Assembly (NCBI GenBank): GCA_020059745.1
Contig: JAGVBK010000004.1
Span: forward strand, 100,797 to 164,796
DNA from: Candidatus Shapirobacteria bacterium
GTDB lineage: Bacteria > Patescibacteriota > Microgenomatia > UM-FILTER-40-11
DNA length: 64,000 bases
Reading direction: 5' to 3'
Below the pieces are notes generated by a model. It was not told the DNA's origin. It searched no databases and worked only from the letters and a program-made list of their open reading frames with translations. This document shows, in pieces, positions 5,809 through 23,165 of the stretch. How positions within the stretch are numbered: position 1 is the first letter of the stretch; the number at the start of each line of letters is the position of its first letter. Both the position numbers and the translations under genes were made by a program.

Positions 5809-5858
5809 TTGGTTATATTAACTTACCTAAGCTCCGCGGGCCTAAGATTAATATAACC
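5809..5858. promoter_or_regulatory. Perfect 11-bp inverted repeat (GGTTATATTAA ... TTAATATAACC, 26-nt spacer), giving a candidate hairpin terminator after the NTase gene or an operator for ORF 5255-5806
   Basis: Left arm 5811-5821 and right arm 5848-5858 are exact reverse complements. The left arm is also copy 2 of the 13-bp direct repeat (5809-5821). Confidence 0.4.
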
Positions 5859-5950
5859 TTTGACTTCACTCCAATTATACTCGCCTTACAAGATTTGAGG
5901 TACATCGGAGAGATGAGGCAAAGGTGGGAAGAAATTAAAAAAATTAGCAC

Positions 5951-7369
5951 TCATTCATCTTTAATTCCAACATAAAACCTGCCGGTGGCGACACAAACAC
6001 CCTTATTTATGGCATAGCAATCAACCCAATGCATACCTGGGTATTGGGTGTGTTCTTCTTTAAAGTCTGAGTCTCCCTCGCAAAAGTGAAATTCGTTTCC
6101 TCTCCAACCGCCTATGCGTGCCATTTCTAATGCCGGAAGTCCATTATTAACCACTAACCACCTTATTTCATCATATACAAGTCCATTAATATCTGGTGAA
6201 AAATATAAGGAATAGTCCTTGCTAAGATATTCTCCTGAAGTCATTGACCTTGTGCCATTAAGTACCTCAAGTTGAAACTTAGAAAATGGTTTTGGAATAT
6301 TCTTGAAAGAAGGAGGATTTTTAACCTTTTCTGAGCGCTTGACCTTGCAGGAAACGTTAATTTTTGAGGGGTTAGGAGCAAAAGGCCATGGCGGATTAGC
6401 AATGAGACTCTCCCTCAAAGCAGAATATACTTCTTCTCTTTCCTCTTCTGGCATGTTCACAAATTTACTTAATGCTTTGGAGGCAAAATCCACGGCTAAT
6501 TTTCTTTGCACTCCCGTTTTGTCTTCATTCAAATAACTGTCCACAAAAATATTGCTCTCTGCCATATCTGGTATTGCTGGTTTCTCTAGCCATTGCCCCA
6601 TATTTTTAAGGAAATAACAAACTGTATCATAAAAATTAATACCTTTATTCTGGGCAAAGATATTTGTGATAACCAGCTCAAAATGAAAGGATTTCAGCTC
6701 AAACTCGGTTAATCCGGCATTACACGACTTTTTCCAAACTTTAGCAAACTTGACGGATTTTCTATAACTAGGATTTGAATTTAAATTTAAAGCTTGTTTG
6801 ATGTAGCCTTTGGGGTCAGACAAAATCCAGGGAATTTTCCCTCCACTAACGCTATATTTCTTGGCCCAATTGCCCTGGTGCATTTTCTGGATTTCTGGAA
6901 CCAAATAAATATCGTCTCCATGCCTGTTTTTTCTTCCAGATTTTAAAGCGGGAACAACATCTATGGAAAAACCCTTTTCTTTTGGAAAAGCGATGCTAAC
7001 TGAGTGTGTTTGGTCTGCGTCAATTTCTACTTCTTCTCCTATTTTACGATAACCTTCGGCCAAAATTGAAGCTAAGCTTTGTAATGGGTCTTTAACATCA
7101 AAATAGAAGGGTTCACCTTGCTTAGCGCTTGAAAAAAGCTTACTTCCGGTTACTTGAAAAGCTTCAGGTAATATCCATATTATGTCAAGGTCGTGAACGG
7201 GGGTTACTGAAGTTTCTCTAACATATGAACCGCTTTGAAAAATTTCATTCCCCAATATCTCTTGAAGGTCGCTGTAATGTTTTGAAATAACTTCTCTTTC
7301 CTCCGCCGGGGGCGATAAATACTTGCGACAAAACTCCTCTAAGGTGGTATTAACTTCGTCTTGGTTCAT
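5951..7369 (-). CDS. CD-NTase / SMODS-like nucleotidyltransferase (pol-beta superfamily) with an extra C-terminal domain
   Basis: GSYVRETSVTPVHDLD fits the GS...[DE]h[DE] pattern, with a third acidic residue in FSIDVVPAL. A helical C-lobe follows, then ~140 aa of unknown function. Confidence 0.55.
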   Translation of the reverse strand: MNQDEVNTTLEEFCRKYLSPPAEEREVISKHYSDLQEILGNEIFQSGSYVRETSVTPVHDLDIIWILPEAFQVTGSKLFSSAKQGEPFYFDVKDPLQSLASILAEGYRKIGEEVEIDADQTHSVSIAFPKEKGFSIDVVPALKSGRKNRHGDDIYLVPEIQKMHQGNWAKKYSVSGGKIPWILSDPKGYIKQALNLNSNPSYRKSVKFAKVWKKSCNAGLTEFELKSFHFELVITNIFAQNKGINFYDTVCYFLKNMGQWLEKPAIPDMAESNIFVDSYLNEDKTGVQRKLAVDFASKALSKFVNMPEEEREEVYSALRESLIANPPWPFAPNPSKINVSCKVKRSEKVKNPPSFKNIPKPFSKFQLEVLNGTRSMTSGEYLSKDYSLYFSPDINGLVYDEIRWLVVNNGLPALEMARIGGWRGNEFHFCEGDSDFKEEHTQYPGMHWVDCYAINKGVCVATGRFYVGIKDE

Positions 7370-7913
7370 ATCGGTACGAGGACATAATGGAAAAGATATC
7401 GCTCACTAAGCGAAGTGGCATGCTTGATAGAGCATACCATTTGTAATCTTTAATTATTTCTTTATGTTTATCGTCAAGTTGGTAGCCTATTTCAAAGGTA
7501 TAAATAATTAAAGGTTTATCGGCTCGCCTGACCATTTGAAAAAAATCGTCAAAGTCATTCATTCCCCTATGGTATCCCAGTATTATAATGCCAGCTTCAT
7601 CAATATCTTTCTGGTCAATAGCATGGAAATCGGTTACAACTCCTTTAGAGACATTAAAATAGCCTGAACTCTTAAGAACCCCAAGCTCCCGTTCCATGTC
7701 TTTTGTCCCGCCATCATTTCTCTTTCCTCCAGGCGGACAAAAAATAAAAACCTTTTTGCCTAAATTCTTCCCAAGTCTCCAAAAAACTTTGGCCGACCGG
7801 CTGAAAATAACAATGAACCCTACAATAGCCACGAGAAGACCACCAGCGGCTTTTAAAATATCCCAAGCATCTAAAGCAGTGGTAATTTTATTAATATCTA
7901 TATCGGTTTTCAT
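7350..7913 (-). CDS. Single-pass membrane protein with a small alpha/beta (Rossmann-like) domain, translationally coupled to the NTase
   Basis: One TM helix (LLVAIVGFIVIFS), then VFIFCPPGG...GGT...IIILGYHRG. Its stop overlaps the NTase start by 20 nt. Confidence 0.45.
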   Translation of the reverse strand: MKTDIDINKITTALDAWDILKAAGGLLVAIVGFIVIFSRSAKVFWRLGKNLGKKVFIFCPPGGKRNDGGTKDMERELGVLKSSGYFNVSKGVVTDFHAIDQKDIDEAGIIILGYHRGMNDFDDFFQMVRRADKPLIIYTFEIGYQLDDKHKEIIKDYKWYALSSMPLRLVSDIFSIMSSYRYEPRRS

Positions 7914-7973
7914 CTTTTTCTTTCAAAACAAATGCTTGACATTTACTGTAGATATACCATAAACTTATTATAA
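7914..7973. promoter_or_regulatory. Divergent promoter region between the TM-NTase operon and lexA
   Basis: TTGACA at 7936-7941. TACTGTAGATATACCA contains a CTGT half-site reminiscent of an E. coli-type SOS box, but the second half-site is not matched. Confidence 0.25.
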
Positions 7974-8567
7974 ATGCAAGATGTAAAACCGCTTACAGAG
8001 CGGCAAAAACAAGTTCTAGACTTCATAAATTCATTTTTAAGCGAGAAAGGCATTTCCCCTTCGCTCAAGGAAATTGCCAGCTTTTTAAATACAAATAATC
8101 TTAGCTCAGCTCAATATTTCATTAATGAGCTTGAAGATAAGGGGTATCTTCGGAAAAATGCCAATAAAGCAAGAGGAATCATGCCTATCCCAAAAAAATA
8201 CTCAATTCCTTTGCTCGGTTTTATTGCCGCAGGAGAACCAATTGAGCCAATTGAATCTCCGGATGAAATATCCATTCCTCCAAGCATGGAAATAGACATA
8301 AAGTATCCTCACTATGCCCTCCAAGTTAAGGGTGATAGTATGATTGATATGGGGATTTTAGATGGTGATATTGTTATTATTAAACATCAGTTAACTGCTA
8401 GTAGCGGAGAAACGGTCGTTGCCGTTACAGAGAATGGAGCAACCTTGAAAATCTTTAAAAAAGAAAACGACCAAGTATTTTTGGAACCAAGAAATAAGGA
8501 GTATCAGACAATTTATCCGCAAAGGCTAGATATTAGAGGCAAATTTGTTGGCTTAATTAGAAACTAA
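7974..8567 (+). CDS. lexA: LexA repressor (S24 peptidase)
   Basis: N-terminal winged HTH, cleavage-site region LLGFIAAGEPI, catalytic Ser in KGDSM and Lys in TLKIFKK. Confidence 0.85.
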   Translation: MQDVKPLTERQKQVLDFINSFLSEKGISPSLKEIASFLNTNNLSSAQYFINELEDKGYLRKNANKARGIMPIPKKYSIPLLGFIAAGEPIEPIESPDEISIPPSMEIDIKYPHYALQVKGDSMIDMGILDGDIVIIKHQLTASSGETVVAVTENGATLKIFKKENDQVFLEPRNKEYQTIYPQRLDIRGKFVGLIRN

Positions 8568-8569
8568 AC

Positions 8570-9496
8570 ATGTTTTTAGAAATAAACAAAGTCCATCAGG
8601 GTGATGCGAGGAAACTGCTAAAGCAGGTAGAACCAAATTCAGTATCCTTAAGTGTTTGGTCTCCACCTTATTTTGTAGGAAAGGAATACGAAAAATACTT
8701 ATCATATCAAGATTGGGTTGACCTTTTAACCTCGGTAATTTCACTTCATGAACCAATATTAAAGCCGGGTGGTTTCCTTGTAGTTAATATTGCTGATATT
8801 CTCGCCTTTCAAGATAAATCAATCCCTCGTTTTCAAGCGCTTACCCTTACTAGACAAAAGTGTTCGGTTAGTCAGAAAGATGTTCTTGAAGCCAAAAAGA
8901 AGCACCCTGACTACAACCGATATCAACTTGCAGAATTATTGAAGTGTAGTGAGCAAACAATCGATAGAAGACTAAATGGCAATAACATAAGAGGCGGTAA
9001 ATACAACAATCAAACCAGAGTCCATTTAGTCGGAGATATTATTGAAAAACCGGCATATAAAGCAGGCTTATATCTTTATGATAGAAGAATTTGGAAAAAA
9101 GACCCTTGTTGGGAAAATAGCAAGTGGCATTCTTTATCCTACCGCTCTGTTGATGAATTTGAATATTTGTACTTTCTCTGGAAGCCAGGAATAACTACTG
9201 TTGACCGCAAAAGATTAAGCAAGGAAGAATGGAAGGATTGGGGTTCAAGAGGAGTTTGGGAAATACCTTCCGTTAGGACAAATAACGACCACGAAGCGAA
9301 ATTTCCCTTAGAACTCCCCAAAAGAGCAATAAGGCTTCTTACTTCACCAGGAGATGTTGTTTTAGATTGTTTTATGGGAAGTGGAACAACTGCCATTGCA
9401 GCAATTAATGAAGGAAGAAATTTTATCGGTATTGAATTAGAACCAAAATATGTTGATTTATCAAACCGAAAGATAAAAGAGGTGCAATCTAAATAA
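8570..9496 (+). CDS. DNA methyltransferase (beta-class amino-MTase, likely N4-cytosine or N6-adenine) with an inserted HTH-like segment
   Basis: Motif IV SPPY (VWSPPYF) lies N-terminal and motif I DCFMGSGTTAIAA lies C-terminal. The start is 2 nt after the lexA stop. Confidence 0.8.
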   Translation: MFLEINKVHQGDARKLLKQVEPNSVSLSVWSPPYFVGKEYEKYLSYQDWVDLLTSVISLHEPILKPGGFLVVNIADILAFQDKSIPRFQALTLTRQKCSVSQKDVLEAKKKHPDYNRYQLAELLKCSEQTIDRRLNGNNIRGGKYNNQTRVHLVGDIIEKPAYKAGLYLYDRRIWKKDPCWENSKWHSLSYRSVDEFEYLYFLWKPGITTVDRKRLSKEEWKDWGSRGVWEIPSVRTNNDHEAKFPLELPKRAIRLLTSPGDVVLDCFMGSGTTAIAAINEGRNFIGIELEPKYVDLSNRKIKEVQSK

Positions 9497-9515: not shown

Positions 9516-10367
9516 TTATCTAGATTTTTCTTCCCACTTATTTCCGTTTATCCGAACAATTTTTGTACATCGCCAATTTTCAATTGAGGCCAAAGGGTTT
9601 AACCTAATTCTTATCCGCTTTGTATCGTCTGCTCTACTCTTTTCATCCTTACCGCAAATAATTAAACCGGGGGTCTCAGCTAATTTGGGTCCGTCAAACA
9701 TTAGCAAACCATTGGGAACACAGGCTAATTCAAAATATTTTAAGGGTTGAAAACCTATTTTTTCAACTTCATATACCGCCTTCAAAAACATTGTTATACA
9801 AAGAAGCGGCTTGTCGTCAATTAAATAAAAGGGTGGCAGCTTCGGTTGAAAGTTATAGTTGATTTTACCATTCCCTTGATAATGCACAGGCCAAGGTGAA
9901 TTAATAATTCCGTTTTTCCAATCATCACCTCTACCTGAAACTTGATTAGGAGGAACAACCACTTCATTTGGATTATCATTTGGTCCAGTTAACTTAATAT
10001 CTAAATGAACCAATGTCTCTTTATTGGTAAAACGGATATCTCCGCCTGTTGGCAAACCAGGAAACCTAACTTCTGAAAAAGCTTTAATAATTTTTGAAGT
10101 AAGATTATAACTAATTGTTTTCTCTCCTAACTCTAGCCAGGGAACAGAATTCCCTGTTGGTTGTCTTCCTCTCTGCTCTGGAGGATAGTTTGACCAAAAA
10201 GGATATAGCTTCCAAGCGTATTCCGTAAAATCTAAATAGAGGTCGTCGGCAATATCAAGAACTATGCCCTTGATTTTAAGGCAATGCTCTTTTTCTACTT
10301 TCCGAACGGTTTCAAGGTTGTTAACGAAATAATCTCTAACCTTAAAATAACTTTTCGCGTCAGTCAT
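9516..10367 (-). CDS. Hypothetical protein, a candidate restriction endonuclease partner
   Basis: Lies 19 bp from the MTase stop and is convergent with it, a common Type II R-M arrangement. No firm PD-(D/E)xK motif. Confidence 0.3.
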   Translation of the reverse strand: MTDAKSYFKVRDYFVNNLETVRKVEKEHCLKIKGIVLDIADDLYLDFTEYAWKLYPFWSNYPPEQRGRQPTGNSVPWLELGEKTISYNLTSKIIKAFSEVRFPGLPTGGDIRFTNKETLVHLDIKLTGPNDNPNEVVVPPNQVSGRGDDWKNGIINSPWPVHYQGNGKINYNFQPKLPPFYLIDDKPLLCITMFLKAVYEVEKIGFQPLKYFELACVPNGLLMFDGPKLAETPGLIICGKDEKSRADDTKRIRIRLNPLASIENWRCTKIVRINGNKWEEKSR

Positions 10368-10469: not shown

Positions 10470-10694
10470 GTGGCTAATAATGGCCAAACAAAGAGGTTAC
10501 CAGTAACTTTGTATGGCTATCAGTTCTACGAAGAAAATGACATTGCTCAGGGCACACTTTACTTTGGTGACTGGAGCTACTATGTGATTGGAGACAGACA
10601 GACCATTTCGGTCAGGACAACGACTGAAGGAGGCGACGCTTGGAGGAGAAACGCTATGGAGAGTAATAAAGATACTCTATTTCGTAGAAATTAG
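10470..10694 (+). CDS. Hypothetical small protein
   Basis: ORF only. Confidence 0.3.
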   Translation: MANNGQTKRLPVTLYGYQFYEENDIAQGTLYFGDWSYYVIGDRQTISVRTTTEGGDAWRRNAMESNKDTLFRRN

Positions 10695-10746
10695 TAGAAA
10701 ATACTAGAAAACTTGACATCGCAATTTTTACCATTAATATGGAGGT

Positions 10747-11670
10747 ATGACCACCATATGTGAGGGCTGTACCATTGAATTTGCACCAAAGAGGAATGGC
10801 CAAAAATATCATAGTAGAGACTGTTTTCTGAAAGCCACACTAAAACTTCTTGTTTGTCCCCATTGTGGCCAAAAGTTTCAAAAAAAATTCTCTGGCCAAA
10901 TTTGCTGCTCCCGGAAGTGTTCCTATAAATTTAGGGCAAAGAAGGTTAGCAGGGGCAGTATTGTTTATTGCTCTCTTCCTTCCTGCAGTAAGGCAATATA
11001 CAGGATGCCGTCTAGAATTAAAAAGTATAATTTTTGCTGCTCAGAACATAGGGCTCTCTACCAAAAATCTCCTGAAAATAAGGACTTCGGCAAAGGGTGG
11101 AAACATACTGCCGAAGAAATCGCGAAAATTAGGCAAGCTAACTTAAACAGGGATTATAGTCAGACATTTACGGAGGAAGAAAGAGCTAAGGCTGCTAAAA
11201 GGGCGAGGAACAAGGTATGGACTCCTGAAGCTAGGAAAAATGCCAGCTTATCTCATTTGGGTAAGAAACTCCCAGAAGAGCAAAAACGAAAAATAAGGGA
11301 GAATTCTCCCAAAGGCGAGGAAAATAAACAATGGAAAGATGACGATGCGAGCTATGCGGCAAAGCATAGTTGGGCCAAAAGGCACATGGAAAAACCAAAG
11401 GTTTGTGCCTTCTCCCAAACCGAGGGGCATCTCTGTAAAGGAAGGTTGGAACTAGCCAACAAAAATCACCAGTATGAAAGAAATATTGACGATTGGGCTT
11501 GGATGTGCCGGTACCATCACGATAAATTTGATGTCGAAAACGGCTTGCGCCGCCTGACCCCCAAAACGGTGAAAATTTACGGGAAGTTTATTAACCCGAA
11601 AGTAAAAAATTTAAGCATAAGTGGCATAGTAGATAACCCAACAATTAGTCCTAATTTGAACTATCAATAA
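10747..11670 (+). CDS. HNH endonuclease with NUMOD3-like repeats and a Cys-rich N-terminus (homing-endonuclease-like)
   Basis: N-terminal CxxC clusters. Repeats GWKHTAEEIAKIRQAN and VWTPEARKNASLSHLGKKLPEEQKRKIREN resemble NUMOD3. The C-terminus HLCKG...NHQYERNIDD...CRYHHDKFD is HNH-like. Confidence 0.6.
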   Translation: MTTICEGCTIEFAPKRNGQKYHSRDCFLKATLKLLVCPHCGQKFQKKFSGQICCSRKCSYKFRAKKVSRGSIVYCSLPSCSKAIYRMPSRIKKYNFCCSEHRALYQKSPENKDFGKGWKHTAEEIAKIRQANLNRDYSQTFTEEERAKAAKRARNKVWTPEARKNASLSHLGKKLPEEQKRKIRENSPKGEENKQWKDDDASYAAKHSWAKRHMEKPKVCAFSQTEGHLCKGRLELANKNHQYERNIDDWAWMCRYHHDKFDVENGLRRLTPKTVKIYGKFINPKVKNLSISGIVDNPTISPNLNYQ

Positions 11671-11729
11671 ACTTATCAGAAGGCTACCTCTGGTAGACGA
11701 TAAGAGATAGTTCAAGGGTTGTTTCCCCT

Positions 11730-11948
11730 TTGGAAACGTTAGAGAACCCAGTAAGAGGCGTTTTAAATGCCTTTACTGGGTTCTTTTGGAAAAATATGAA
11801 AGACAAAAATAGCGAAGTTAAAAACGTTGATGAAATAGCAGAACATTGGGCGAGGCTAATTTTGTCGCATATTGAAATTAAAAAAAGAAAAGAAAAATCT
11901 ATGTTAGCAAATAAAAAAGGTCGATTTATGGCGCCAAATAATATATAA
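11730..11948 (+). CDS. Hypothetical small protein upstream of the recombinase (possible directionality factor)
   Basis: ORF only. Confidence 0.3.
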   Translation: METLENPVRGVLNAFTGFFWKNMKDKNSEVKNVDEIAEHWARLILSHIEIKKRKEKSMLANKKGRFMAPNNI

Positions 11949-11971
11949 TTAATTAACTATAGGACAAATTT

Positions 11972-13498
11972 ATGAAGACTTGCTACGCCTACATTAGGGT
12001 TTCTACTGATGAGCAAAAGAATAAAGGTTATTCTCCAGATAATCAAATTAGGCAGGTTAGAGATTATACTGAACTACACGAATATCGCATCAAGAAGATA
12101 TTTGATGATAGTGGAAGAAGCGGGCGGTCAACGGAGCATCGGTATGAACTTCAGAGTTTATTAAGTGCAGTCGACTCTAACCCGGTAGATGCCGTCATAA
12201 TATATAAAATTGACCGCTTTGCCAGAAATGTCGGAGATTTTGACAGGATTTATAAAAATTTTAAGACAAAAGGTATTAAACTTATTTCTGTTACTGAAGG
12301 CGATTTAACAGAGGGAAATAGTTTAATTCCCAATATTTTTGCTTCTGTAGCCCAATGGGAGTCAGAAGCAAATAGTTTGAGAACAAAAGATGCTTTGGCT
12401 CAAAAATTTGAAGAAGGCTGGCAACCAACCCCTCCCCCTATTGGCTACCGAACAGTTGGTGGGGAAAGGGAAAAAAAGACTTGTGAGCCTGACACTTATA
12501 CTGCGCCGATAATAAAAGAGCTTTTTAAAATGTATTCCACTGGAAATTATTCAATTCTTGCTTTGCAGGATTGGCTAAGTCAAAAGAACATTGTTTCTAA
12601 AAATGGAACCGGATTGGGACATAGTGTTATTTGCAATATCCTTAATAATCCTTTTTATTATGGACTAATTCGCTGGCATGGGGAGTCAAAAATCGGCAAG
12701 CACAAACCAATAATAGATAAATCGCTTTACGAGACGTGCCAGTATATTTTAGCTAAACATCGTAGTTTCCTAATTAGGAAGCGGGTACATGATTACTTAT
12801 TGAGAGGTTTCATCTTTTGTCATTATTGTGGCCAAAGGTATACTGCCGAACCTCATCCCAACCATTCAGTTAATAAACCTGGGGTAATCCATTACTATCA
12901 TTGCCCTAAAAGAGAACGAAATGGTTGCCCTTCAAAATACATTGAGGCAGATACTCTTGAGAAACAGATAGAAGAAGAGTTTAAAAAGCTCCAATTTAGC
13001 GAAGAATTCATTGAAGCAGTGATAAGGAAGGCCAAAGAAATCATCGCCCAAAACAGAAGAGAAAAGTCATCAGTAATGCGAGGTATTATTAATCAAAAAA
13101 ATGCTTTGGAAAATAAAAGGAATACCCTTGAAGATGCATTGTTAGATGGCACTATTGATAGAGAAACCTTTAAACGCCGCCATAATGCTTTGCAACAGCA
13201 ATTAATTAACTTAGATAACCAAATAACAGAATTTGACAACCAGGGGAAAATCGATATTGACTTAATTGAGGAAGTGCTTGCTTTTACGAGGGACATTTAT
13301 CAAACATATATTGAAGCCCCCGATTACCTTAAAAGGCATTATCTAAGGTTTTTCTTTGAGAAAGTTATAGTGAAGGATAAGAAAATATATAAAGTAATCC
13401 CGACTCCTATATTCAAAATATTGAAAAATAGGCACGAAATTATAATAAGAAAGAATTGGCTCCCCCGCGTGGATTCGAACCACGAACCTACCGCTTAA
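11972..13498 (+). CDS. Large serine recombinase (integrase)
   Basis: N-terminal resolvase catalytic motif YAYIRVSTDEQ, a recombinase domain, a zinc ribbon CHYCGQ...HCPKRERNGC and a C-terminal coiled coil. The ORF's 3' end reads into tRNA-Asn. Confidence 0.85.
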   Translation: MKTCYAYIRVSTDEQKNKGYSPDNQIRQVRDYTELHEYRIKKIFDDSGRSGRSTEHRYELQSLLSAVDSNPVDAVIIYKIDRFARNVGDFDRIYKNFKTKGIKLISVTEGDLTEGNSLIPNIFASVAQWESEANSLRTKDALAQKFEEGWQPTPPPIGYRTVGGEREKKTCEPDTYTAPIIKELFKMYSTGNYSILALQDWLSQKNIVSKNGTGLGHSVICNILNNPFYYGLIRWHGESKIGKHKPIIDKSLYETCQYILAKHRSFLIRKRVHDYLLRGFIFCHYCGQRYTAEPHPNHSVNKPGVIHYYHCPKRERNGCPSKYIEADTLEKQIEEEFKKLQFSEEFIEAVIRKAKEIIAQNRREKSSVMRGIINQKNALENKRNTLEDALLDGTIDRETFKRRHNALQQQLINLDNQITEFDNQGKIDIDLIEEVLAFTRDIYQTYIEAPDYLKRHYLRFFFEKVIVKDKKIYKVIPTPIFKILKNRHEIIIRKNWLPRVDSNHEPTA

Positions 13499-13531
13499 CA
13501 GGCGGACGCTCTACCGTTGAGCTACAGGGGA
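13457..13531 (-). tRNA. tRNA-Asn(GTT)
   Basis: Reverse-complement cloverleaf: acceptor TCCCCTG, D-arm AGCTCAACGGTAGAGC, anticodon loop CTGTTAA, T-arm GGTTCGAATCC, encoded CCA. Confidence 0.85.
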
Positions 13532-17746: not shown

Positions 17747-17953
17747 TTATTTCAATAAATCTTCAACGGAAACACCGAGCGCTTTAGCAATCTTGGCTAT
17801 CATCTGAACGCCTGGCTTTTTTACAAAATCGCCCTCAATTTTTGCAAGAGTGGAGTATTTGAGCTCGGCTTTTCGCGCCAAGTCGTCTTGGCTCAATTCT
17901 TGCTTCGTTCTCAATCGTTTTATATTTTCACCTATTGTTGCCATACTATCCAA
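17747..17953 (-). CDS. XRE-family HTH transcriptional regulator
   Basis: IGENIKRLRTKQELSQDDLARKAELKYSTLAKIE is a Cro/C1-type HTH. Confidence 0.7.
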   Translation of the reverse strand: MDSMATIGENIKRLRTKQELSQDDLARKAELKYSTLAKIEGDFVKKPGVQMIAKIAKALGVSVEDLLK

Positions 17954-18131
17954 GTTTTGATAACATAAAATTATGTTACAATCTTACTGTAAGATTATGA
18001 TAACGAATTTTCTGATTTTATTCAAGAAAAGCCCGCTTCTGGCCTTACTGAATTCAAAACGGCTTGAAATTTCCCCGAAAAACGGCTGGCGAGCCCGCGT
18101 AGCGGGCGAGCCAATGACTTCATTTCCTAAC

Positions 18132-18219
18132 TGGCGGAGAGAGCGGGATTCGAACCCGCGAGAGCTTTCGCCCTGCGCGCTTTCCAAGCGCGTGCACTCG
18201 ACCACTATGCGACCTCTCC
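18132..18219 (-). tRNA. tRNA-Ser(GGA)
   Basis: Reverse-complement cloverleaf: anticodon loop TTGGAAA, long variable arm, T-arm GGGTTCGAATCCC, encoded CCA. Confidence 0.8.
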
Positions 18220-18261
18220 AATAATTTAATTTTACCTTAGTTAGCTTTAAAAATCGACATT

Positions 18262-18335
18262 GCGCCTCTGGGAGGAATTGAACCTCCGACCCCCAGTTCC
18301 GGAAACTGATGCTCTATCCCCTGAGCTACAGAGGC
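18262..18335 (-). tRNA. tRNA-Arg(CCG)
   Basis: Reverse-complement: acceptor GCCTCTG, D-arm AGCTCAGGGGATAGAGC, anticodon loop TTCCGGA, T-loop TTCAATT. Confidence 0.75.
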
Positions 18336-18418
18336 AAATTACCCTAAAGCGGATTGCGTCCGCTGGGGTCACAGCAAAACATATGAAAGGCGTCGCGTAA
18401 TAATCTCGCCATATCAAG

Positions 18419-18497
18419 GCGGAAAGGGTGGGAGGGTGTGCGCTTGCTTCGCAATGCTCCGTTAATCCCGCCCTTCCTTGAAACTGCGTTTCTGCGG
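18419..18497. repeat. ~72-bp repeat unit, copy B, inserted at the 3' end of tRNA-Ser(CGA)
   Basis: GCGGAAAGGGTGGGA + core GGGTGTGCGC...CCTTCCTTGA + AACTGCGTTTCTGCGG, followed by a duplicated GCGGAAAGGGTGGGA that is the tRNA 3' end. Confidence 0.55.
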
Positions 18498-18579
18498 AAA
18501 GGGTGGGATTCGAACCCACGGTAGCTTGCGCCACACTGGTTTTCGAAACCAGCTCATTCGACCACTCTGACACCTTTCC
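18494..18579 (-). tRNA. tRNA-Ser(CGA)
   Basis: Reverse-complement: acceptor GGAAAGG, anticodon loop TTCGAAA, long variable arm, T-arm GGGTTCGAATCCC. Confidence 0.8.
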
Positions 18580-18581
18580 TG

Positions 18582-18654
18582 GTGCGCCCAGGAGGAATTG
18601 AACCCCCAACCTTTTGGACCGCAACCAAATGTTCTATCCGTTGAACTATGGGCG
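18582..18654 (-). tRNA. tRNA-Arg (anticodon read as GCG)
   Basis: Reverse-complement: acceptor GCGCCCA, D-arm GTTCAACGGATAGAAC, anticodon stem TTTGG/CCAAA with loop TTGCGGT, T-loop TTCAATT. An anticodon of GCG is unusual and should be confirmed. Confidence 0.6.
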
Positions 18655-18704
18655 CATTTAATTTGTAGCTTCTATATTATACCAGAATTCAGCCTTAAAT
18701 AGGC

Positions 18705-19271
18705 TTATTTTGAAGGCTTTTGTGAAGGTGGGCTTTTTTTCTCACTTTCAAGGGGAATTTTCTCAGAAAGCCAGGTTGAGGCATTGTCTAAAAATGTGGG
18801 TTCTGGCTCTTCCTCAAAAGCATATCTTAAAGAAATTTCCCTAATTTTTGCCTCGTCTCCCTCACCAATCATTAAGCTTAAACGAGAGGGGAAACCATAT
18901 TTAAGCTGGTAATTAACCATCTTTTGACCATATTTTTGATTTATCCAAAACTGCTCAACATTCTCCCAAGGATAAGTTTGGCCGGCATAAGCAACCCCCC
19001 GGTTTGTTAATCTATTTTCAATTTCTTCAGGAGGCACAGTAGAAAGAACATAAACTACAAAAACAAAAGCAATAATGGCGGCAATTAAAAAGAAATCTTT
19101 AACAAAGATTAAAATCAGGCTAACCAATAAAACAATAGCCAAAATCGTGCTCCAAAACTCCTTGTCTCTTTTTTTAAAAGGCCTTGTAGGCGCTTTCCAG
19201 GCGTATAAAACTTTTAGCTCTTTTGAGGGAATTACTTCTTGAATGGACTGAGAGGAATCAGACTCTGGCAT
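18705..19271 (-). CDS. Hypothetical membrane protein
   Basis: Two adjacent TM helices and a C-terminal soluble domain. No recognisable motif. Confidence 0.4.
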   Translation of the reverse strand: MPESDSSQSIQEVIPSKELKVLYAWKAPTRPFKKRDKEFWSTILAIVLLVSLILIFVKDFFLIAAIIAFVFVVYVLSTVPPEEIENRLTNRGVAYAGQTYPWENVEQFWINQKYGQKMVNYQLKYGFPSRLSLMIGEGDEAKIREISLRYAFEEEPEPTFLDNASTWLSEKIPLESEKKSPPSQKPSK

Positions 19272-19307
19272 TAAGTTAAGAATAAATCAAACAATCACCA
19301 AAATCAA

Positions 19308-19913
19308 TTATTTGTACATATAAATGGTAAAATCCTGGGGAGAATAGGTGTTTATAAGCTCCACTTTAGGAGTAACTGTCCGGCAAAACTCAGTCACTTC
19401 TTTTGAGTCATAAGCAGCAAAAAGCTCATCATCAATATGCCCTTTGGCATCAAGCATGTTAAAAGCAAGCCCAAGCTTACTTAAAGAAAACATTTTTTTA
19501 ATCATCTCAAAGTATTTTTCCTTGTGATTAGGAACCTTAAAAGACAAAGCTCCGGAAGAAAGGACATAATCAAAGCTTCCAGATTCAAAATTAAAAATAT
19601 CAAAAACCAGAAATTTAGCCTCTGGGTATTTAATTTTAGCTTTTTCTACCAGCTCCGGCACAGCATCAATACCCAGGTAATCAAAATCGCGATAACTTAG
19701 GTTAAGAAAGCGGTAAAGGTCCCCCAAGCCAGAACCAACATCTAAAATACTTTTTTTATCAAAATCCCCTACCCCGGTTAAAGCTTGGAACCTAATAAGC
19801 TGAGACTCTTCCCCTGCCCAATTTAAAGCTTTGGCGCTGTTAATGCCGTAAGTTTTTAATGATTTTATATAGTAATCCCTCAACCTGGTTTTATCTTGAT
19901 CTGAAAATTTCAT
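19308..19913 (-). CDS. Class I SAM-dependent methyltransferase
   Basis: Motif I ILDVGSGLGDL and a Rossmann-fold pattern. Confidence 0.7.
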   Translation of the reverse strand: MKFSDQDKTRLRDYYIKSLKTYGINSAKALNWAGEESQLIRFQALTGVGDFDKKSILDVGSGLGDLYRFLNLSYRDFDYLGIDAVPELVEKAKIKYPEAKFLVFDIFNFESGSFDYVLSSGALSFKVPNHKEKYFEMIKKMFSLSKLGLAFNMLDAKGHIDDELFAAYDSKEVTEFCRTVTPKVELINTYSPQDFTIYMYK

Positions 19914-19940
19914 CTTTGAAACTCTAAAAAATTTGGCAAT

Positions 19941-21164
19941 TTACCCAAACATCAACCATTCGGGTTTAAAAAGAAGCAATAAGCCAATAAAGAACATTAA
20001 AAAGCCGCCAATAAGATGGGAATAGCGAGAATATTTACTTTGCAAGCCTACGGCTTTGAGGGTAATCATGGCAGTGAAAAAAACAACTAAATCATCAATC
20101 ATAAAAATTAAAATATAAAAGAGAAGATAAAGGTAATACTGCCACTTTGGAAGTCCAGAAAGACTTAGAATTTGGGTATAAACAGCAGGCAGCCCCGCCG
20201 AACAAACAAGCTCTACTAAATTTACCGTTATTGCTAAAATGATTATTCCTCCCAGAGCAAGAAAGAATTCTTTTCTTTCGGTAATCGCTCGAATTTTTTG
20301 AAAAATCTTTTGTCTTTTTTTACTTCCCGTAACTGGGCAACTAGCTTCTTTGTTGGTCCAATAATCCCGAAGGTAATATCCTCCCGCGGTTAAAGCCACC
20401 AAACCGATTAAAATTCTAACCCAAATGACAAAACCTAAAAACAAAAATAAATTCAACCAGGCAGAAAGAAAAAGAAAATATACTGCTGCACTGGTAACAA
20501 TAAAAGTTATTCCCAAAATCCACATCCTCTTTCTGTCTTTCATACCTAAAAGCAAACTAATAAGGAATAATAGCGTCCACATGGCGCAGGGGTTAAAACC
20601 GTCTAAAAAGGCCAAAACAAAAGTTACGACCGGCAAGGATAACTGGTAAACATCAACTTCTCCAAAAAGAGGAAGTTTAACAAATTTATCTTTAGAGATA
20701 TTTTCTCCTTTTACTGAATTAGGGTTCGAGGAGGAAACTTCAGGCTTTACCTTTTTGTCCTCTGTCTCTTTAACGATTAAAGCCACTGGGTCTTCACAAG
20801 CGGTTTGAGAACATTCAATTATCTTATTTTCAATTTCTTTGGTGGTAATACCGTCAATAAACCCGAGAAAATGATCCTTTCCTATCACCAAAAAAGGCAC
20901 GCCCCCAACCTCAACATTTAAGTTTTCCGCAGTCTTTTGCAACAAAGCATTATTCTCCCGGTTGTGGTAAATCTCATATTCTTTTACTTTTAACTGTGGG
21001 TGCCTGCCTTCAAGCTCGTTAAGAAATTCCTGCATTTTCCCACAGTGGGGACAACCACGACCATAAAAGAAATAAGCATTAACAACAGGGGCTGCTCTCA
21101 CTTTTCCAAAAGAAGACAAAAAAAGAAACAGAGCTAAAAATAATATTTTTATTTTTTTATACAT
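19941..21164 (-). CDS. Thiol:disulfide interchange protein (thioredoxin-like domain fused to a CcdA/DsbD-type membrane domain)
   Basis: Signal peptide, thioredoxin motif GCPHCGKM, then TM helices with the conserved FNPCAMW. The ORF-track start at 21350 runs through a repeat and tRNA-Ser, so the start was reset to the MYKKIKILF ATG at 21164. Confidence 0.6.
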   Translation of the reverse strand: MYKKIKILFLALFLFLSSFGKVRAAPVVNAYFFYGRGCPHCGKMQEFLNELEGRHPQLKVKEYEIYHNRENNALLQKTAENLNVEVGGVPFLVIGKDHFLGFIDGITTKEIENKIIECSQTACEDPVALIVKETEDKKVKPEVSSSNPNSVKGENISKDKFVKLPLFGEVDVYQLSLPVVTFVLAFLDGFNPCAMWTLLFLISLLLGMKDRKRMWILGITFIVTSAAVYFLFLSAWLNLFLFLGFVIWVRILIGLVALTAGGYYLRDYWTNKEASCPVTGSKKRQKIFQKIRAITERKEFFLALGGIIILAITVNLVELVCSAGLPAVYTQILSLSGLPKWQYYLYLLFYILIFMIDDLVVFFTAMITLKAVGLQSKYSRYSHLIGGFLMFFIGLLLLFKPEWLMFG

Positions 21165-21224
21165 TATTTGTCTTGTGTTTAGTAAAAACCCAGGCCGGCC
21201 TTTCTTCCCCGTTTTCCTTAAAAC

Positions 21225-21320
21225 TGCGTTTTTGCGGAGAGGGTGGGAGGGTGTGCGCTTGCTTTGCAATGCTCCGTTAATCCCGCCCTTCCTTGATGCG
21301 TTTTTGCGGAGAGGGTGGGA
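21225..21320. repeat. ~72-bp repeat unit, copy C, at the 3' end of tRNA-Ser(TGA), with a 24-bp flanking duplication
   Basis: TGCGTTTTTGCGGAGAGGGTGGGA + core GGGTGTGCGCTTGCTTTGCAATGCTCCGTTAATCCCGCCCTTCCTTGA + TGCGTTTTTGCGGAGAGGGTGGGA, followed by TTCGAACCC of the tRNA. Confidence 0.55.
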
Positions 21321-21393
21321 TTCGAACCCACGGAGAACTTGCGTCCTCAATAGTTTTCAAGACTATCGCACTAGACCACTATGCGACCTCTCC
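21307..21393 (-). tRNA. tRNA-Ser(TGA)
   Basis: Reverse-complement: acceptor GGAGAGG, anticodon loop CTTGAAA, long variable arm, T-arm GGGTTCGAATCCC. Confidence 0.8.
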
Positions 21394-21406
21394 TTCTATA
21401 GGATAG

Positions 21407-21490
21407 AAATAAATTAGCGGAGAGTGTGGGAGTCGAACCCACTCGGCGCTTTCGCACCGCAAGTTTAGCAAACTTGTGCCTTACCGTCCG
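21407..21490 (-). tRNA. tRNA-Ser(GCT)
   Basis: Reverse-complement: acceptor GGAGAGT, anticodon loop TTGCTAA, long variable arm, T-arm GGGTTCGACTCCC. Confidence 0.75.
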
Positions 21491-21537
21491 GCCCACTCTC
21501 CAGGATACCCATATTATACCCAAATTCACCTTTAAAT

Positions 21538-22224
21538 TCACCTACAAATGGTCAAACCCCAAATATTTTTAGCGCCAGCTTTTTTTAAAACACCGGCAGC
21601 TTCGGTCATAGTAGCCCCGGTAGTCCAGACATCGTCAACTAAAACAATACTTAATCCCCTTACCGGTTTTTTTAGCTTAAAGATTCCTCTGACATTTTCT
21701 TTTCTTTCCTTTGATCCCAAAGTAGTTTGGGAAACGGTTGGTTTCCTTTTGATCAAAGTATCTTCTTTTAGAGAAAGGCCGGTTTTTTTAGCTAAGGCTT
21801 TGCCGAAAAGAACCGATTGGTTAAATCCCCTGATATTTTCCTTGTGCCAATGAAGCGGTATAGGAACTAAAATCGGCTTTTTTTGATCAATAAATTTATA
21901 CAAAGAAATAAAGGCTTTTTCATTTTCCCATTCCCGAAAAATTACCGAAAAAAGCTCAGGAAAAATATCAGTTAAAAACTCATATTTTATCTGATGAATT
22001 ACCTCTTTCAAAAGACCCTCAAACCTAAAAAAAGAAAAAAGCCCTTCAAGATCACATTTTTCCCGACAAAAAGAGTGCGTTTTGCCGCCCAAAGATGGCT
22101 TTTGGCAAAAAGGGCAAATTGGCGAGGCTTTTAAGAAAGTCTCTTGACAGCTTTTACATAGATAACTTCCTTCTTTTCCACAACCCAAGCATTCTTTGGG
22201 AAAAACAAGGTCTAAAATATTCAT
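21538..22224 (-). CDS. comFC: ComF-family protein (double zinc ribbon plus phosphoribosyltransferase domain)
   Basis: N-terminal CxxC x4, PRTase motif VLVDDVWTTGATM. Confidence 0.75.
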   Translation of the reverse strand: MNILDLVFPKECLGCGKEGSYLCKSCQETFLKASPICPFCQKPSLGGKTHSFCREKCDLEGLFSFFRFEGLLKEVIHQIKYEFLTDIFPELFSVIFREWENEKAFISLYKFIDQKKPILVPIPLHWHKENIRGFNQSVLFGKALAKKTGLSLKEDTLIKRKPTVSQTTLGSKERKENVRGIFKLKKPVRGLSIVLVDDVWTTGATMTEAAGVLKKAGAKNIWGLTICR

Positions 22225-22260
22225 CTCTCTTAGTTTAGCTCGTAATGATACAATATAGCC

Positions 22261-22707
22261 ATGAAAATCGTAAACAAAAAAGCAGGGTTTGATTATGAAA
22301 TCTCAGAGAAGATTGAGGCTGGCGTGGCCTTAACCGGAGCTGAAGTTAAATCGCTTTTTTCCGGCCAGGCAAGCTTGGATGAAGCTTATGTAAAAATAAT
22401 TGACGGAGAGGCTTTCTTAATTAATGCCCATATCCACCCATACCAATACGCCGATACCCGAAAAATTGATCCTAAGCGCACCAGAAAGCTTCTGCTTCAC
22501 AAAAAAGAGCTGCTTTCCCTTATTAATAAAATAAAGCAGAAAAATTTGATCATAATCCCCCTCTCGTGGTATAATATTGGTCACCAAATCAAGCTTGAGA
22601 TAGCCTTAGCCAAAGGTAAGAAAAAATGGCAAAAAAAAGAAGCTATTAAAAAGCGAGACTTGGAGAGGGAAATAGAACAAACAATCGGCAAAAAGATTAA
22701 AAACTAA
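22261..22707 (+). CDS. smpB: SsrA-binding protein SmpB
   Basis: KAGFDYEI...GVALTGAEVKS...LLLHKKE match SmpB. tmRNA lies immediately downstream. Confidence 0.9.
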   Translation: MKIVNKKAGFDYEISEKIEAGVALTGAEVKSLFSGQASLDEAYVKIIDGEAFLINAHIHPYQYADTRKIDPKRTRKLLLHKKELLSLINKIKQKNLIIIPLSWYNIGHQIKLEIALAKGKKKWQKKEAIKKRDLEREIEQTIGKKIKN

Positions 22708-22791
22708 TTTTTGCGGCGATTCAATTGAAGATCGCAAAAATTACCTTGAAGGATGATTTTTTGAAAGAAACCTCGGTTTCTTTCAATGAAA

Positions 22792-23165
22792 AGGGGATGC
22801 ACTGGTTTCGACGGGAAGCGCTCTTTTAAAACTGCAAGCCTCCTTTGAATCACAGGAGTAAAAAAGATTCAAAAAAGAAAAGACAACGATTATTCTGTTG
22901 CCCCTAGCGTTAACTACAACGTTAACTACGCTTTTGCGTAAATAGGCATCTTTAAAATTTCTTGCTTGCCGGAAGCTTAAAGGTGTAAACAAAGACAAGA
23001 CGCAGGCTGCTGGTTTGCCAAACACCAGTTGCCAAAGCCTAAGTTTGGCAACCTCTAGCTTTCCAGGTTAACGGATCAGGCTAGAGGTAAAAAAGTTAAC
23101 CTAAGCTTGTAGAAGTTTTAAATTAGACTTTTCGGATTCCGGTTCAATTCCGGACATCTCCACAC
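22792..23165 (+). ncRNA. ssrA: tmRNA (SsrA)
   Basis: 5' end GGGGATGCACTGGTTTCGACGGG. A tag reading frame ends ...VAPSVNYNVNYAFA with TAA at 22939-22941. A T-arm-like TCCGGTTCAATTCCGGA is followed by the 3' acceptor CATCTCC-A. CCA is not encoded. Confidence 0.75.

Follow-up and report, generated by a model that had tools for sequence, protein, structure and literature searches.

Methyltransferases of the SsoII/EcoRII type, in which a regulatory helix-turn-helix (HTH) domain is fused to the enzyme, control type II restriction-modification (R-M) systems. The LexA regulon of the Patescibacteria is reportedly the subject of a study by Sanchez-Osuna, Barbe and Erill in Environ Microbiol (2017), cited in PMC7739468 and PMC8565304, whose title is said to speak of a DNA damage-inducible network. 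According to the accessible part of PMC7739468, which cites that 2017 study among its sources, LexA has evolved the recognition of direct-repeat motifs in several groups. R-M systems are known to trigger the SOS response when unbalanced, and type II R-M is controlled by C (controller) proteins (reviewed in PMC3874152); in type I R-M, restriction is alleviated after DNA damage by ClpXP, which degrades HsdR (PMC4231737, accessible part). Immune operons can also be tied to DNA damage: in CapH/CapP, CapW (and BrxR) and CapK/CapS, a divergent repressor located upstream of the operon is inactivated after damage and expression goes up (accessible parts of bioRxiv 10.1101/2022.04.27.489752, PMC11662680 and PMC13373217). 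The subject of the present analysis is a lexA gene in 64,000 nucleotides of DNA from a Candidatus Shapirobacteria bacterium (contig JAGVBK010000004.1, positions 100,797 to 164,796; this whole stretch is called the window). The gene is located between a divergent operon of the CBASS type (an anti-phage signaling system based on cyclic oligonucleotides) and the DNA methyltransferase gene of a type II R-M pair.

With a probability of roughly 0.6, we propose that this chromosomal lexA is autoregulated, that the methyltransferase is transcribed together with it and that LexA probably keeps CBASS repressed; both would then respond to DNA damage, and lexA would act as the transcriptional center of a small defense island. 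We infer the damage wiring from comparisons of sequences from metagenome assemblies, and it is weaker for CBASS than for the methyltransferase.

Results

The features of the locus are collected in Table 1. The lexA product contains the Pfam domains LexA_DNA_bind (PF01726, 3.8e-15, residues 5-68) and Peptidase_S24 (PF00717, 2.1e-24), and the residues A85-A86-G87, S122 (in GDSM) and K159 are invariant among 33 homologs. The earlier note on this DNA had called the protein a bona fide LexA, and the domains, the AAG site, Ser122 and Lys159 are all present. It matches at 100% an entry named 'transcriptional repressor LexA [Candidatus Microgenomates bacterium]' and is 60-75% identical to many Patescibacteria LexA proteins. 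The geometry given in the earlier note, with lexA divergent from a transmembrane-nucleotidyltransferase operon across 60 bp, is exact. The lexA stop codon had also been placed 2 nt before the start of an SPPY-type methyltransferase, and the sequence confirms it: only the dinucleotide 'ac' separates TAA from the methyltransferase ATG. No Shine-Dalgarno sequence precedes the methyltransferase, and the promoter and terminator scan gave no promoter of at least 10/12 matches and no terminator match ahead of it.

A total of 79 lexA loci were compared, drawn from a collection with one genome per species, and the first gene after lexA was counted in the 48 species-level loci outside the WWE3 clade. 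In 42 of these 48, lexA is directly followed by a co-oriented DNA methyltransferase, by vsr and a methyltransferase, or is fused to one, with at least four Pfam families represented: Eco57I/N6_Mtase type (12 loci), N6_N4_Mtase (11), C5 cytosine methylase (10), Vsr and then C5 methylase (5), D12/Dam type (3) and an in-frame LexA-methyltransferase fusion (1, locus L047). All 42 have the same orientation as lexA. The gaps range from -14 to +102 bp and mostly do not exceed 36 bp, and 35 of the 42 junctions have no Shine-Dalgarno-like motif ahead of the methyltransferase. The enzymes form at least ten clusters unlinked by BLAST, which suggests repeated independent acquisition. The near-identical LexA proteins of L004 and L005 carry different cassettes; since closely related LexA proteins adjoin different R-M families, lexA does not seem to travel with the cassette. 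As judged from gene order, the cargo turns over and the position and orientation of the methyltransferase persist.

In the relatives the endonuclease is usually convergent, often along with a C protein of its own. One 1.2-Mb contig provides an independent replicate, with lexA, a D12 methyltransferase overlapping it by 1 nt, and a convergent HNH endonuclease with an HTH_3 C protein. Among lexA loci from outside the Patescibacteria, 12 of which were checked as controls, a methyltransferase follows lexA in none of the nine that were readable, and in two of the controls (L059 and L069) a dinB-like gene is found there. The co-transcription of lexA and methyltransferase suggested in the earlier note is thus strongly backed by comparative data, namely the 42 of 48 loci and the fusions described below.

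The fusion at L047 (positions 5992-7761 of Candidatus Doudnabacteria MFES01000004.1) is an open reading frame of 589 amino acids with LexA_DNA_bind, S24 and N6_Mtase/Eco57I domains. A search with it gave at least 120 cluster representatives (P0121-P0240) of 589-645 amino acids, each covering 98-100% of the query and each containing all three domains. They come mostly from Patescibacteria/Parcubacteria and are named either LexA or adenine methyltransferase. In seven aligned fusions the AAG cleavage site, the Ser, the Lys, the S-adenosylmethionine motif and GNPPY are all intact. The possibility that the L047 fusion is an assembly artefact was rejected in view of the at least 120 independent full-length clusters. 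That a fusion is kept this widely would be difficult to account for if LexA and the methylase did not act together. In three fusion neighborhoods, which resemble that of the window, a convergent unannotated gene of 276-316 amino acids overlaps the 3' end, and AbiV, HNH, CYTH, HEPN or Schlafen-type genes are divergent upstream. The convergent neighbor is possibly an endonuclease.

The lexA gene of the window is probably the chromosomal SOS repressor gene, judging from its setting, in which the anchors are conserved and the content between them changes. In L006 and L021 tRNA-Asn is located 2-4 kb after lexA, with rpoD nearby in both; L001 has a 38-nt remnant of tRNA-Asn about 5 kb downstream of lexA; in the window, rpoD and dnaG come after the prophage remnant described below. 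Since the order lexA, tRNA-Asn, rpoD is common to the window, L006 and L021, lexA is probably not part of a mobile island, and the idea that it is carried by an integrated element was rejected on the same ground. A single lexA locus is found in all assemblies but one. This one, MFDN01 (Candidatus Daviesbacteria), has two loci (L022 and L033) with the same promoter design. After one lexA come an N6_N4 methyltransferase and a putative endonuclease; after the other comes a 137-residue gene of no assigned family, with a serine recombinase nearby. This may be either lexA paralogy or a mixed bin.

Up to the start codon, the lexA promoter has the sequence TTGACA ttt ACTGTA gatat ACCATA aactt ATTATA a ATG. 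It has 10/12 matches in the promoter scan, with TTGACA and TAAACT 18 nt apart as in sigma-70-type promoters, and the three hexamers that follow TTGACA (R1, R2 and R3) form direct repeats with a period of 11 bp. The three repeats are a putative LexA operator in lexA's own promoter, as the alignments suggest. TACTGTAGATATACCA at 7944-7959 spans R1 and most of R2. The lexA promoters of the 23 closest relatives have the consensus TTACTGTAAATTTATCATAAAGTTATCATAA and a common design, cTTGACA, 2-3 nt, ACTGTA, 5 nt, ATCATA, 5 nt, ATCATA (sometimes ACTGTA), ATG. The distance from TTGAC to ATG is 32-44 nt, mostly 37-38 nt, in the 26 closest relatives, and TTGAC is present in 58 of 61 lexA upstream regions, across all Patescibacteria clades. 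The first repeat with its flanks, TACTGTAAAT in the consensus, closely resembles the E. coli LexA half-site TACTGTATAT.

The earlier note had described TTGACA and a CTGT-containing SOS-box-like sequence in this region. The motif is conserved in the 23 related lexA promoters, and the sequence coincides with this lineage-conserved element. It is not a box of the E. coli kind: no palindrome CTGT-N8-ACAG is present in 7914-7973, and the element is a triple direct repeat with one E. coli-like half-site.

A 19-nt position weight matrix was built from the 23 related lexA promoters, with the window left out. Over the 64 kb and both strands, the best match is 7944-7962 at 22.4 bits and the second is 7955-7973, the R2-R3 register, at 18.3 bits; in the remainder of the window one site reaches 14.9 bits and all others stay at or below 7.1 bits. 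Across five clades the repeats change in step with the predicted recognition helix of LexA, while the -35 TTGAC is kept in almost all: the helix NLS(S/T)AQY pairs with ACTGTA/ATCATA repeats, S(I/V)STAQH with TAATAA repeats, TVH(Q/E)H with TTCG-N7-TTCG, SxPT(I/V)(F/H)Q with TTAGTA repeats and SDGSVxQY with TACGAGT repeats. R1 is also kept in loci whose upstream gene is co-oriented or far off, and is therefore not merely a -10 element for a divergent gene. The rank of the site under the matrix, the co-variation with the helix and the conservation of R1 irrespective of the divergent gene argue that the repeats are a regulator's site and not only a promoter spacer. The intergenic region 7914-7973 is 83% identical to that of L001, compared with about 70% in the flanks. 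A metagenome-wide scan for ACTGTA-N5-ATCATAAA, which has 14 specified bases, found TTGAC within 12 nt upstream in 2 of the 122 matches listed, which are chiefly random.

The third-best matrix match, TACTGTAAGATTATGATAA at 17985-18003 (14.9 bits), is located 32-50 bp upstream of a gene of 68 amino acids for an XRE-type HTH protein (17747-17953, minus strand). A 17-bp palindrome, AATCTTACTGTAAGATT, is formed here as well, and the site may be either another target of LexA or the operator of the XRE-type repressor itself. Signatures of recA, uvrA, uvrB, ruvB and dinB were found neither in the window nor in the Microgenomates lexA loci.

The lexA messenger RNA is probably leaderless or nearly so, because the -10 hexamer ends 8 nt before the ATG, the distance from promoter to ATG is almost constant and no Shine-Dalgarno sequence is present. 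In L001-L024, too, 8-10 nt lie between the end of the -10 hexamer and the lexA ATG, and a Shine-Dalgarno sequence is likewise absent; from these start regions, lexA in this clade is probably translated from leaderless messenger RNA. The WWE3 relatives have a lexA leader of about 60 nt with AGGAGG.

The divergent operon consists of a cyclase gene (Pfam AGS_C 4.3e-14 and SMODS 1.7e-6; PADLOC Cyclase PDLC00785 3.3e-71), which overlaps the effector gene by 20 nt and whose product is 98% identical in amino acid sequence to that of L001, and of an effector gene with PADLOC matches to C3a59 TM (3e-24) and 1TM Effector (1.1e-5). It has the makeup of type I CBASS, a cyclase and a single effector with no Cap2/Cap3 or HORMA/TRIP13 accessory genes. 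The neighboring orf183 has no family match and lies outside the cassette shared with L001. In 11 of 47 loci, a PADLOC CBASS cyclase is one of the two genes that lie divergent to lexA, with effectors that vary (1TM, Cap15, SAVED and one HORMA). Of the nine cyclase loci identified by gene cluster, eight have a gap of 53-86 bp between lexA and CBASS. The proposed link of CBASS to lexA is supported by this recurrence. Other divergent partners of lexA are ThsB-TIR, AbiV, AAA_21 and DUF2188.

The lexA promoter and the repeats occupy 7936-7972 and leave 22 bp of the intergenic region. Any CBASS promoter must therefore overlap the operator, or be situated within lexA and act through the operator. On the minus strand, TTTATA (7973-7968), a 17-nt spacer and TACAGT (7950-7945), the latter being the complement of R1, make up a candidate; with 8/12 consensus matches it falls below the scan threshold. 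The CBASS cassette, from 5831 to about 7800 (5831-7830 compared with L001 3858-5860), has 97-100% DNA identity to L001. Within the 5' end of the effector gene the identity drops to about 70%, and it stays at that level across lexA (LexA protein 76%). This difference suggests that the cassette was recently exchanged, through homologous recombination, at a slot that was already homologous.

The partner most often divergent from lexA, found in distant Patescibacteria clades, is a small DUF2188 protein of 76-104 amino acids with a KNQHVVP-like start (loci L008, L012, L017, L018, L020, L040, L048 and L050). Eight members match the PADLOC candidate family PDC-S16 and are probably the DUF2188 proteins. 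The repeat motif of L040 has the inverse orientation and faces the DUF2188 gene. The WWE3 loci (L051-L058, L062 and L070) have no methyltransferase after lexA; there, lexA has a promoter with a TTCG-N7-TTCG direct repeat and is divergent from a protein of about 670 amino acids with a UvrB Walker motif (the motif only), with a UvrA-like gene beyond. The uvrB gene is a classical SOS gene.

The methyltransferase of the window (Pfam N6_N4_Mtase PF01555 2.6e-42; PADLOC MTase_II PDLC03260 4.9e-169) contains SPPY, in VWSPPYF, and FMGSGTT. It is not solitary: it is paired with a convergent endonuclease gene (Pfam Endonuc_BglI PF14562 7.5e-82; PDB 1DMU 1.3e-34), in which GGDIRF and LDIK align with what we take to be the catalytic Asp and D-I-K of BglI (1DMU). 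The enzyme is therefore to be regarded as the modifying partner in an R-M pair of type II, and this shifts the biological reading toward the control of autoimmunity. The endonuclease gene has its own upstream region, in which the weight matrix finds no LexA box, and no small HTH_3 controller open reading frame (C protein) was found upstream of 10367.

Beyond the R-M pair, 10470-13531 is a decayed prophage, with phage-derived genes as listed in Table 1 and two open reading frames of no family match, one Cys-rich (307 amino acids) and one of 72 amino acids. The 3' end of tRNA-Asn is overlapped by the last codons of the integrase gene. No direct repeats (att sites) delimiting the island at tRNA-Asn were found, as is expected for a serine integrase. 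Further along, 18132-23163 contains six tRNA genes (four Ser and two Arg) and a transfer-messenger RNA gene at 22793-23163; ARAGORN predicts an unusually long tag peptide for it, with the ending ...SSFPG and not the usual ...LAA-type ending.

Table 1. Positions of the features in and around the lexA locus (numbering of the window)
Feature	Position	Strand	Description
CBASS cyclase (CD-NTase; SMODS and C-terminal AGS_C sensor domain)	5951-7369	-	472 aa; second gene of divergent operon
One-transmembrane CBASS effector	7350-7913	-	First gene of divergent operon; ATG 60 bp from lexA ATG
Divergent control region	7914-7973	.	60 bp; lexA promoter and putative LexA operator
-35 hexamer TTGACA, lexA promoter	7936-7941	+	Promoter scan
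Putative LexA operator	7945-7972	+	Three direct repeats, 11-bp period
R1 ACTGTA	7945-7950	+	Putative operator repeat 1
R2 ACCATA	7956-7961	+	Putative operator repeat 2
-10 hexamer TAAACT, lexA promoter	7960-7965	+	Promoter scan; ends 8 nt before ATG
R3 ATTATA	7967-7972	+	Putative operator repeat 3
lexA	7974-8567	+	197 aa; stop TAA 8565-8567; winged-HTH DNA-binding domain, A86-G87 cleavage site, S122/K159 dyad
DNA methyltransferase, beta-class N4/N6, SPPY	8570-9496	+	308 aa; modification gene of BglI-like type II R-M
BglI-family restriction endonuclease	9516-10367	-	Convergent with methyltransferase, 19-bp spacer
Prophage remnant	10470-13531	.	Between R-M pair and tRNA-Asn
Major-head-protein C-terminal fragment, 74 aa	10470-10694		Phage_capsid match; phrog_10 2.3e-7
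Large serine integrase	11972-13498		phrog_95 3e-103; Pfam Resolvase, Recombinase, Zn_ribbon_recom
tRNA-Asn	13457-13531	-	3' end overlapped by integrase last codons

Discussion

The proposed mechanism may be outlined as follows. LexA dimers would bind R1-R3 and repress the lexA promoter, from which lexA and the methyltransferase would be expressed as one bicistronic, translationally coupled and probably leaderless messenger RNA. Negative autoregulation would buffer the output of methylase. After DNA breaks, including cuts made by the cell's own endonuclease, RecA-stimulated cleavage of LexA would raise the methylase, and more methylase would shield new or repaired DNA from the BglI-like enzyme, which would amount to a transcriptional restriction alleviation or an autoimmunity feedback. 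If the CBASS promoter overlaps the same operator, CBASS would be LexA-repressed and damage-inducible. The slots flanking lexA would be swapped by recombination with the wiring retained.

Several observations weigh against this proposal. The -10 region is overlapped by R2 and R3, whose complements resemble -10 hexamers, and promoter function may thus account for some of the conservation of these two repeats. Within the 64-kb window and the lexA-centred loci of about 12 kb, the repeats are seen only at lexA promoters, apart from the one doubtful site at 17985-18003. A weak promoter-like site (9/12) lies inside lexA at 8344-8372, about 200 nt upstream of the methyltransferase. Six of the 48 loci have no methyltransferase after lexA: L001, L008, L011 and L040 have no co-oriented gene there, and L033 and L048 have a gene of no assigned family. 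It is important to note that L001, the closest relative, keeps CBASS and yet belongs to this group; two independent further look-ups also found no methyltransferase after lexA. The BglI site GCCNNNNNGGC (GCCN5GGC) occurs 16 times in the 64 kb (824-59518) where about 10 would be expected, so the window has no depletion of these sites despite the apparently intact BglI-like endonuclease. In E. coli, according to one preprint, the expression of defense systems correlates negatively with that of recA. Finally, the variable cargo on both sides of lexA, the serine recombinases near lexA in many loci and the 97-100% identical CBASS cassette between flanks of about 70% are the marks of a recombination hot spot, which explains some of the clustering.

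A hot spot could in fact be the whole explanation, in which case defense cassettes gather beside the core lexA/tRNA-Asn region by recombination and phage integration and keep their own promoters, and LexA regulates only itself. The prophage remnant with its integrase at tRNA-Asn and the methyltransferase-less exceptions L001, L008, L011 and L040 would agree with this. Recombination alone, however, does not predict that methyltransferases from at least ten unrelated clusters, and not the endonuclease, come first, co-oriented and at -14 to +102 bp, nor the usual absence of a Shine-Dalgarno-like motif (35 of 42 junctions), nor in-frame fusions in at least 120 clusters; and the 60-bp divergent region has no space for an operator-free CBASS promoter. 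This explanation is therefore rather unlikely, though it is the strongest of the alternatives. The appearance of the motif only at lexA promoters and at the doubtful 17985-18003 site, the two lexA loci in one metagenome-assembled genome (MFDN01), the mobile-element genes nearby and the fusions, which suggest a specialized role tied to methyltransferases, would all suit a LexA-family protein that is the repressor of a defense island or mobile element (similar to a C protein or to phage CI/SetR) and not the global SOS repressor, with a separate SOS regulator elsewhere or none. We consider this improbable, since lexA, tRNA-Asn and rpoD keep their order while the cargo changes, many Microgenomates species share one promoter design and have LexA proteins of 60-76% identity, related LexA proteins adjoin different R-M families, the WWE3 orthologs are divergent from a UvrB-like gene and all assemblies but one have one lexA locus.

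It might also be argued that an island was inserted here by chance in one genome and that the 'box' is only an AT-rich promoter spacer. Promoter-like matches are indeed common in such an AT-rich region (33 found compared with 25.7 expected), and the E. coli-type palindrome is absent. Such a coincidence is contradicted by the specificity of the weight matrix, by the conservation of the repeats and their co-variation with the helix, and by the recurrence of methyltransferase and CBASS adjacency throughout the lineage, and it has very little probability.

The proposal of an autoregulated lexA wired to both neighbors can be extended from the window to the lineage. LexA of Microgenomates/Parcubacteria might be the organizing regulator of the anti-phage arsenal, with methyltransferases as core members of the lexA operon (fused in a large clade) and with CBASS, Thoeris-like, Abi and further abortive systems plugged in divergently and licensed by damage, the cassettes being swapped and the wiring kept. 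This extension is tentative, and we place it somewhat short of an even chance. If true, it would be an evolutionarily stable and previously undescribed coupling of the SOS response to R-M and innate immunity in streamlined genomes; in the literature compared, to which the 2017 Patescibacteria SOS paper did not belong, no report was found of operons or fusions that join lexA to a methyltransferase, or of defense islands centered on lexA in bacteria of the candidate phyla radiation. It would explain how bacteria with few regulators keep toxic R-M and abortive systems in check, with self-cutting automatically raising protection, and suicide-type immunity (CBASS) would be licensed via a housekeeping repressor and not by dedicated modules of the CapH/CapP or CapW type. 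The lexA locus would also be a landmark for new defense genes in uncultured Patescibacteria, several of its divergent partners being uncharacterized. The LexA-methyltransferase fusions are directly testable in vitro, which is valuable since these organisms cannot be grown.

Comparison with known systems

The locus shares several features with canonical LexA/SOS genes such as E. coli lexA and the lexA-dinB/imuA-type operons: a two-domain self-cleaving repressor, a putative operator overlapping its own promoter, and the place of lexA as the first gene of a short operon, comparable to the dinB-like gene after lexA in L059 and L069. It differs in that the half-sites of the window form three direct repeats with an 11-bp period and not a palindrome, the partner is an R-M methyltransferase and not a repair or translesion gene, and the lexA transcript is probably leaderless. 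The Patescibacteria LexA regulon of 2017 comes from the same superphylum and has the same reported type of direct-repeat LexA motif, as far as can be taken from the accessible part of PMC7739468.

As in CapH/CapP, CapW and CapK/CapS, the lexA of the window is divergent from and immediately upstream of an immune operon, here CBASS, with a shared 60-bp region, and 11 of 47 loci are arranged in this way. Those regulators, according to the accessible parts of their descriptions, are an HTH protein with a metallopeptidase (CapH/CapP), a WYL protein of winged HTH-WYL-WCX architecture (CapW) and a kinase with a repressor (CapK/CapS); they are dedicated, travel with their operon and are unrelated to LexA. 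The regulator of the window would, in contrast, be the cell's own SOS repressor, self-cleaving and dependent on RecA, whose place in the chromosome is fixed while the CBASS cassette beside it is exchanged. The LexA protein has no match among the PADLOC regulator families, the only hits being two marginal ones to CARF3 (E about 0.008). By analogy, LexA may work like the CapH/CapP-, CapW- and CapK/CapS-type regulators though it is not a member of them.

With C proteins and the HTH-methyltransferase fusions of the SsoII/EcoRII type, the locus has in common that transcriptional control would set the balance of methylase and endonuclease. The endonuclease of the relatives still has its own C protein, although no C gene was found in the BglI-like pair of the window. 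The LexA fusions resemble methyltransferases with an N-terminal DNA-binding domain, but the DNA-binding module is a cleavable LexA, and a host stress regulator, not a system-encoded controller, would drive the methylase. In type I restriction alleviation the proposed goal is the same, namely shielding an under-methylated or repaired chromosome from the cell's own endonuclease. There the control is proteolytic and acts on the endonuclease, whereas in the window it would be transcriptional and would act in a type II system by way of more methylase.

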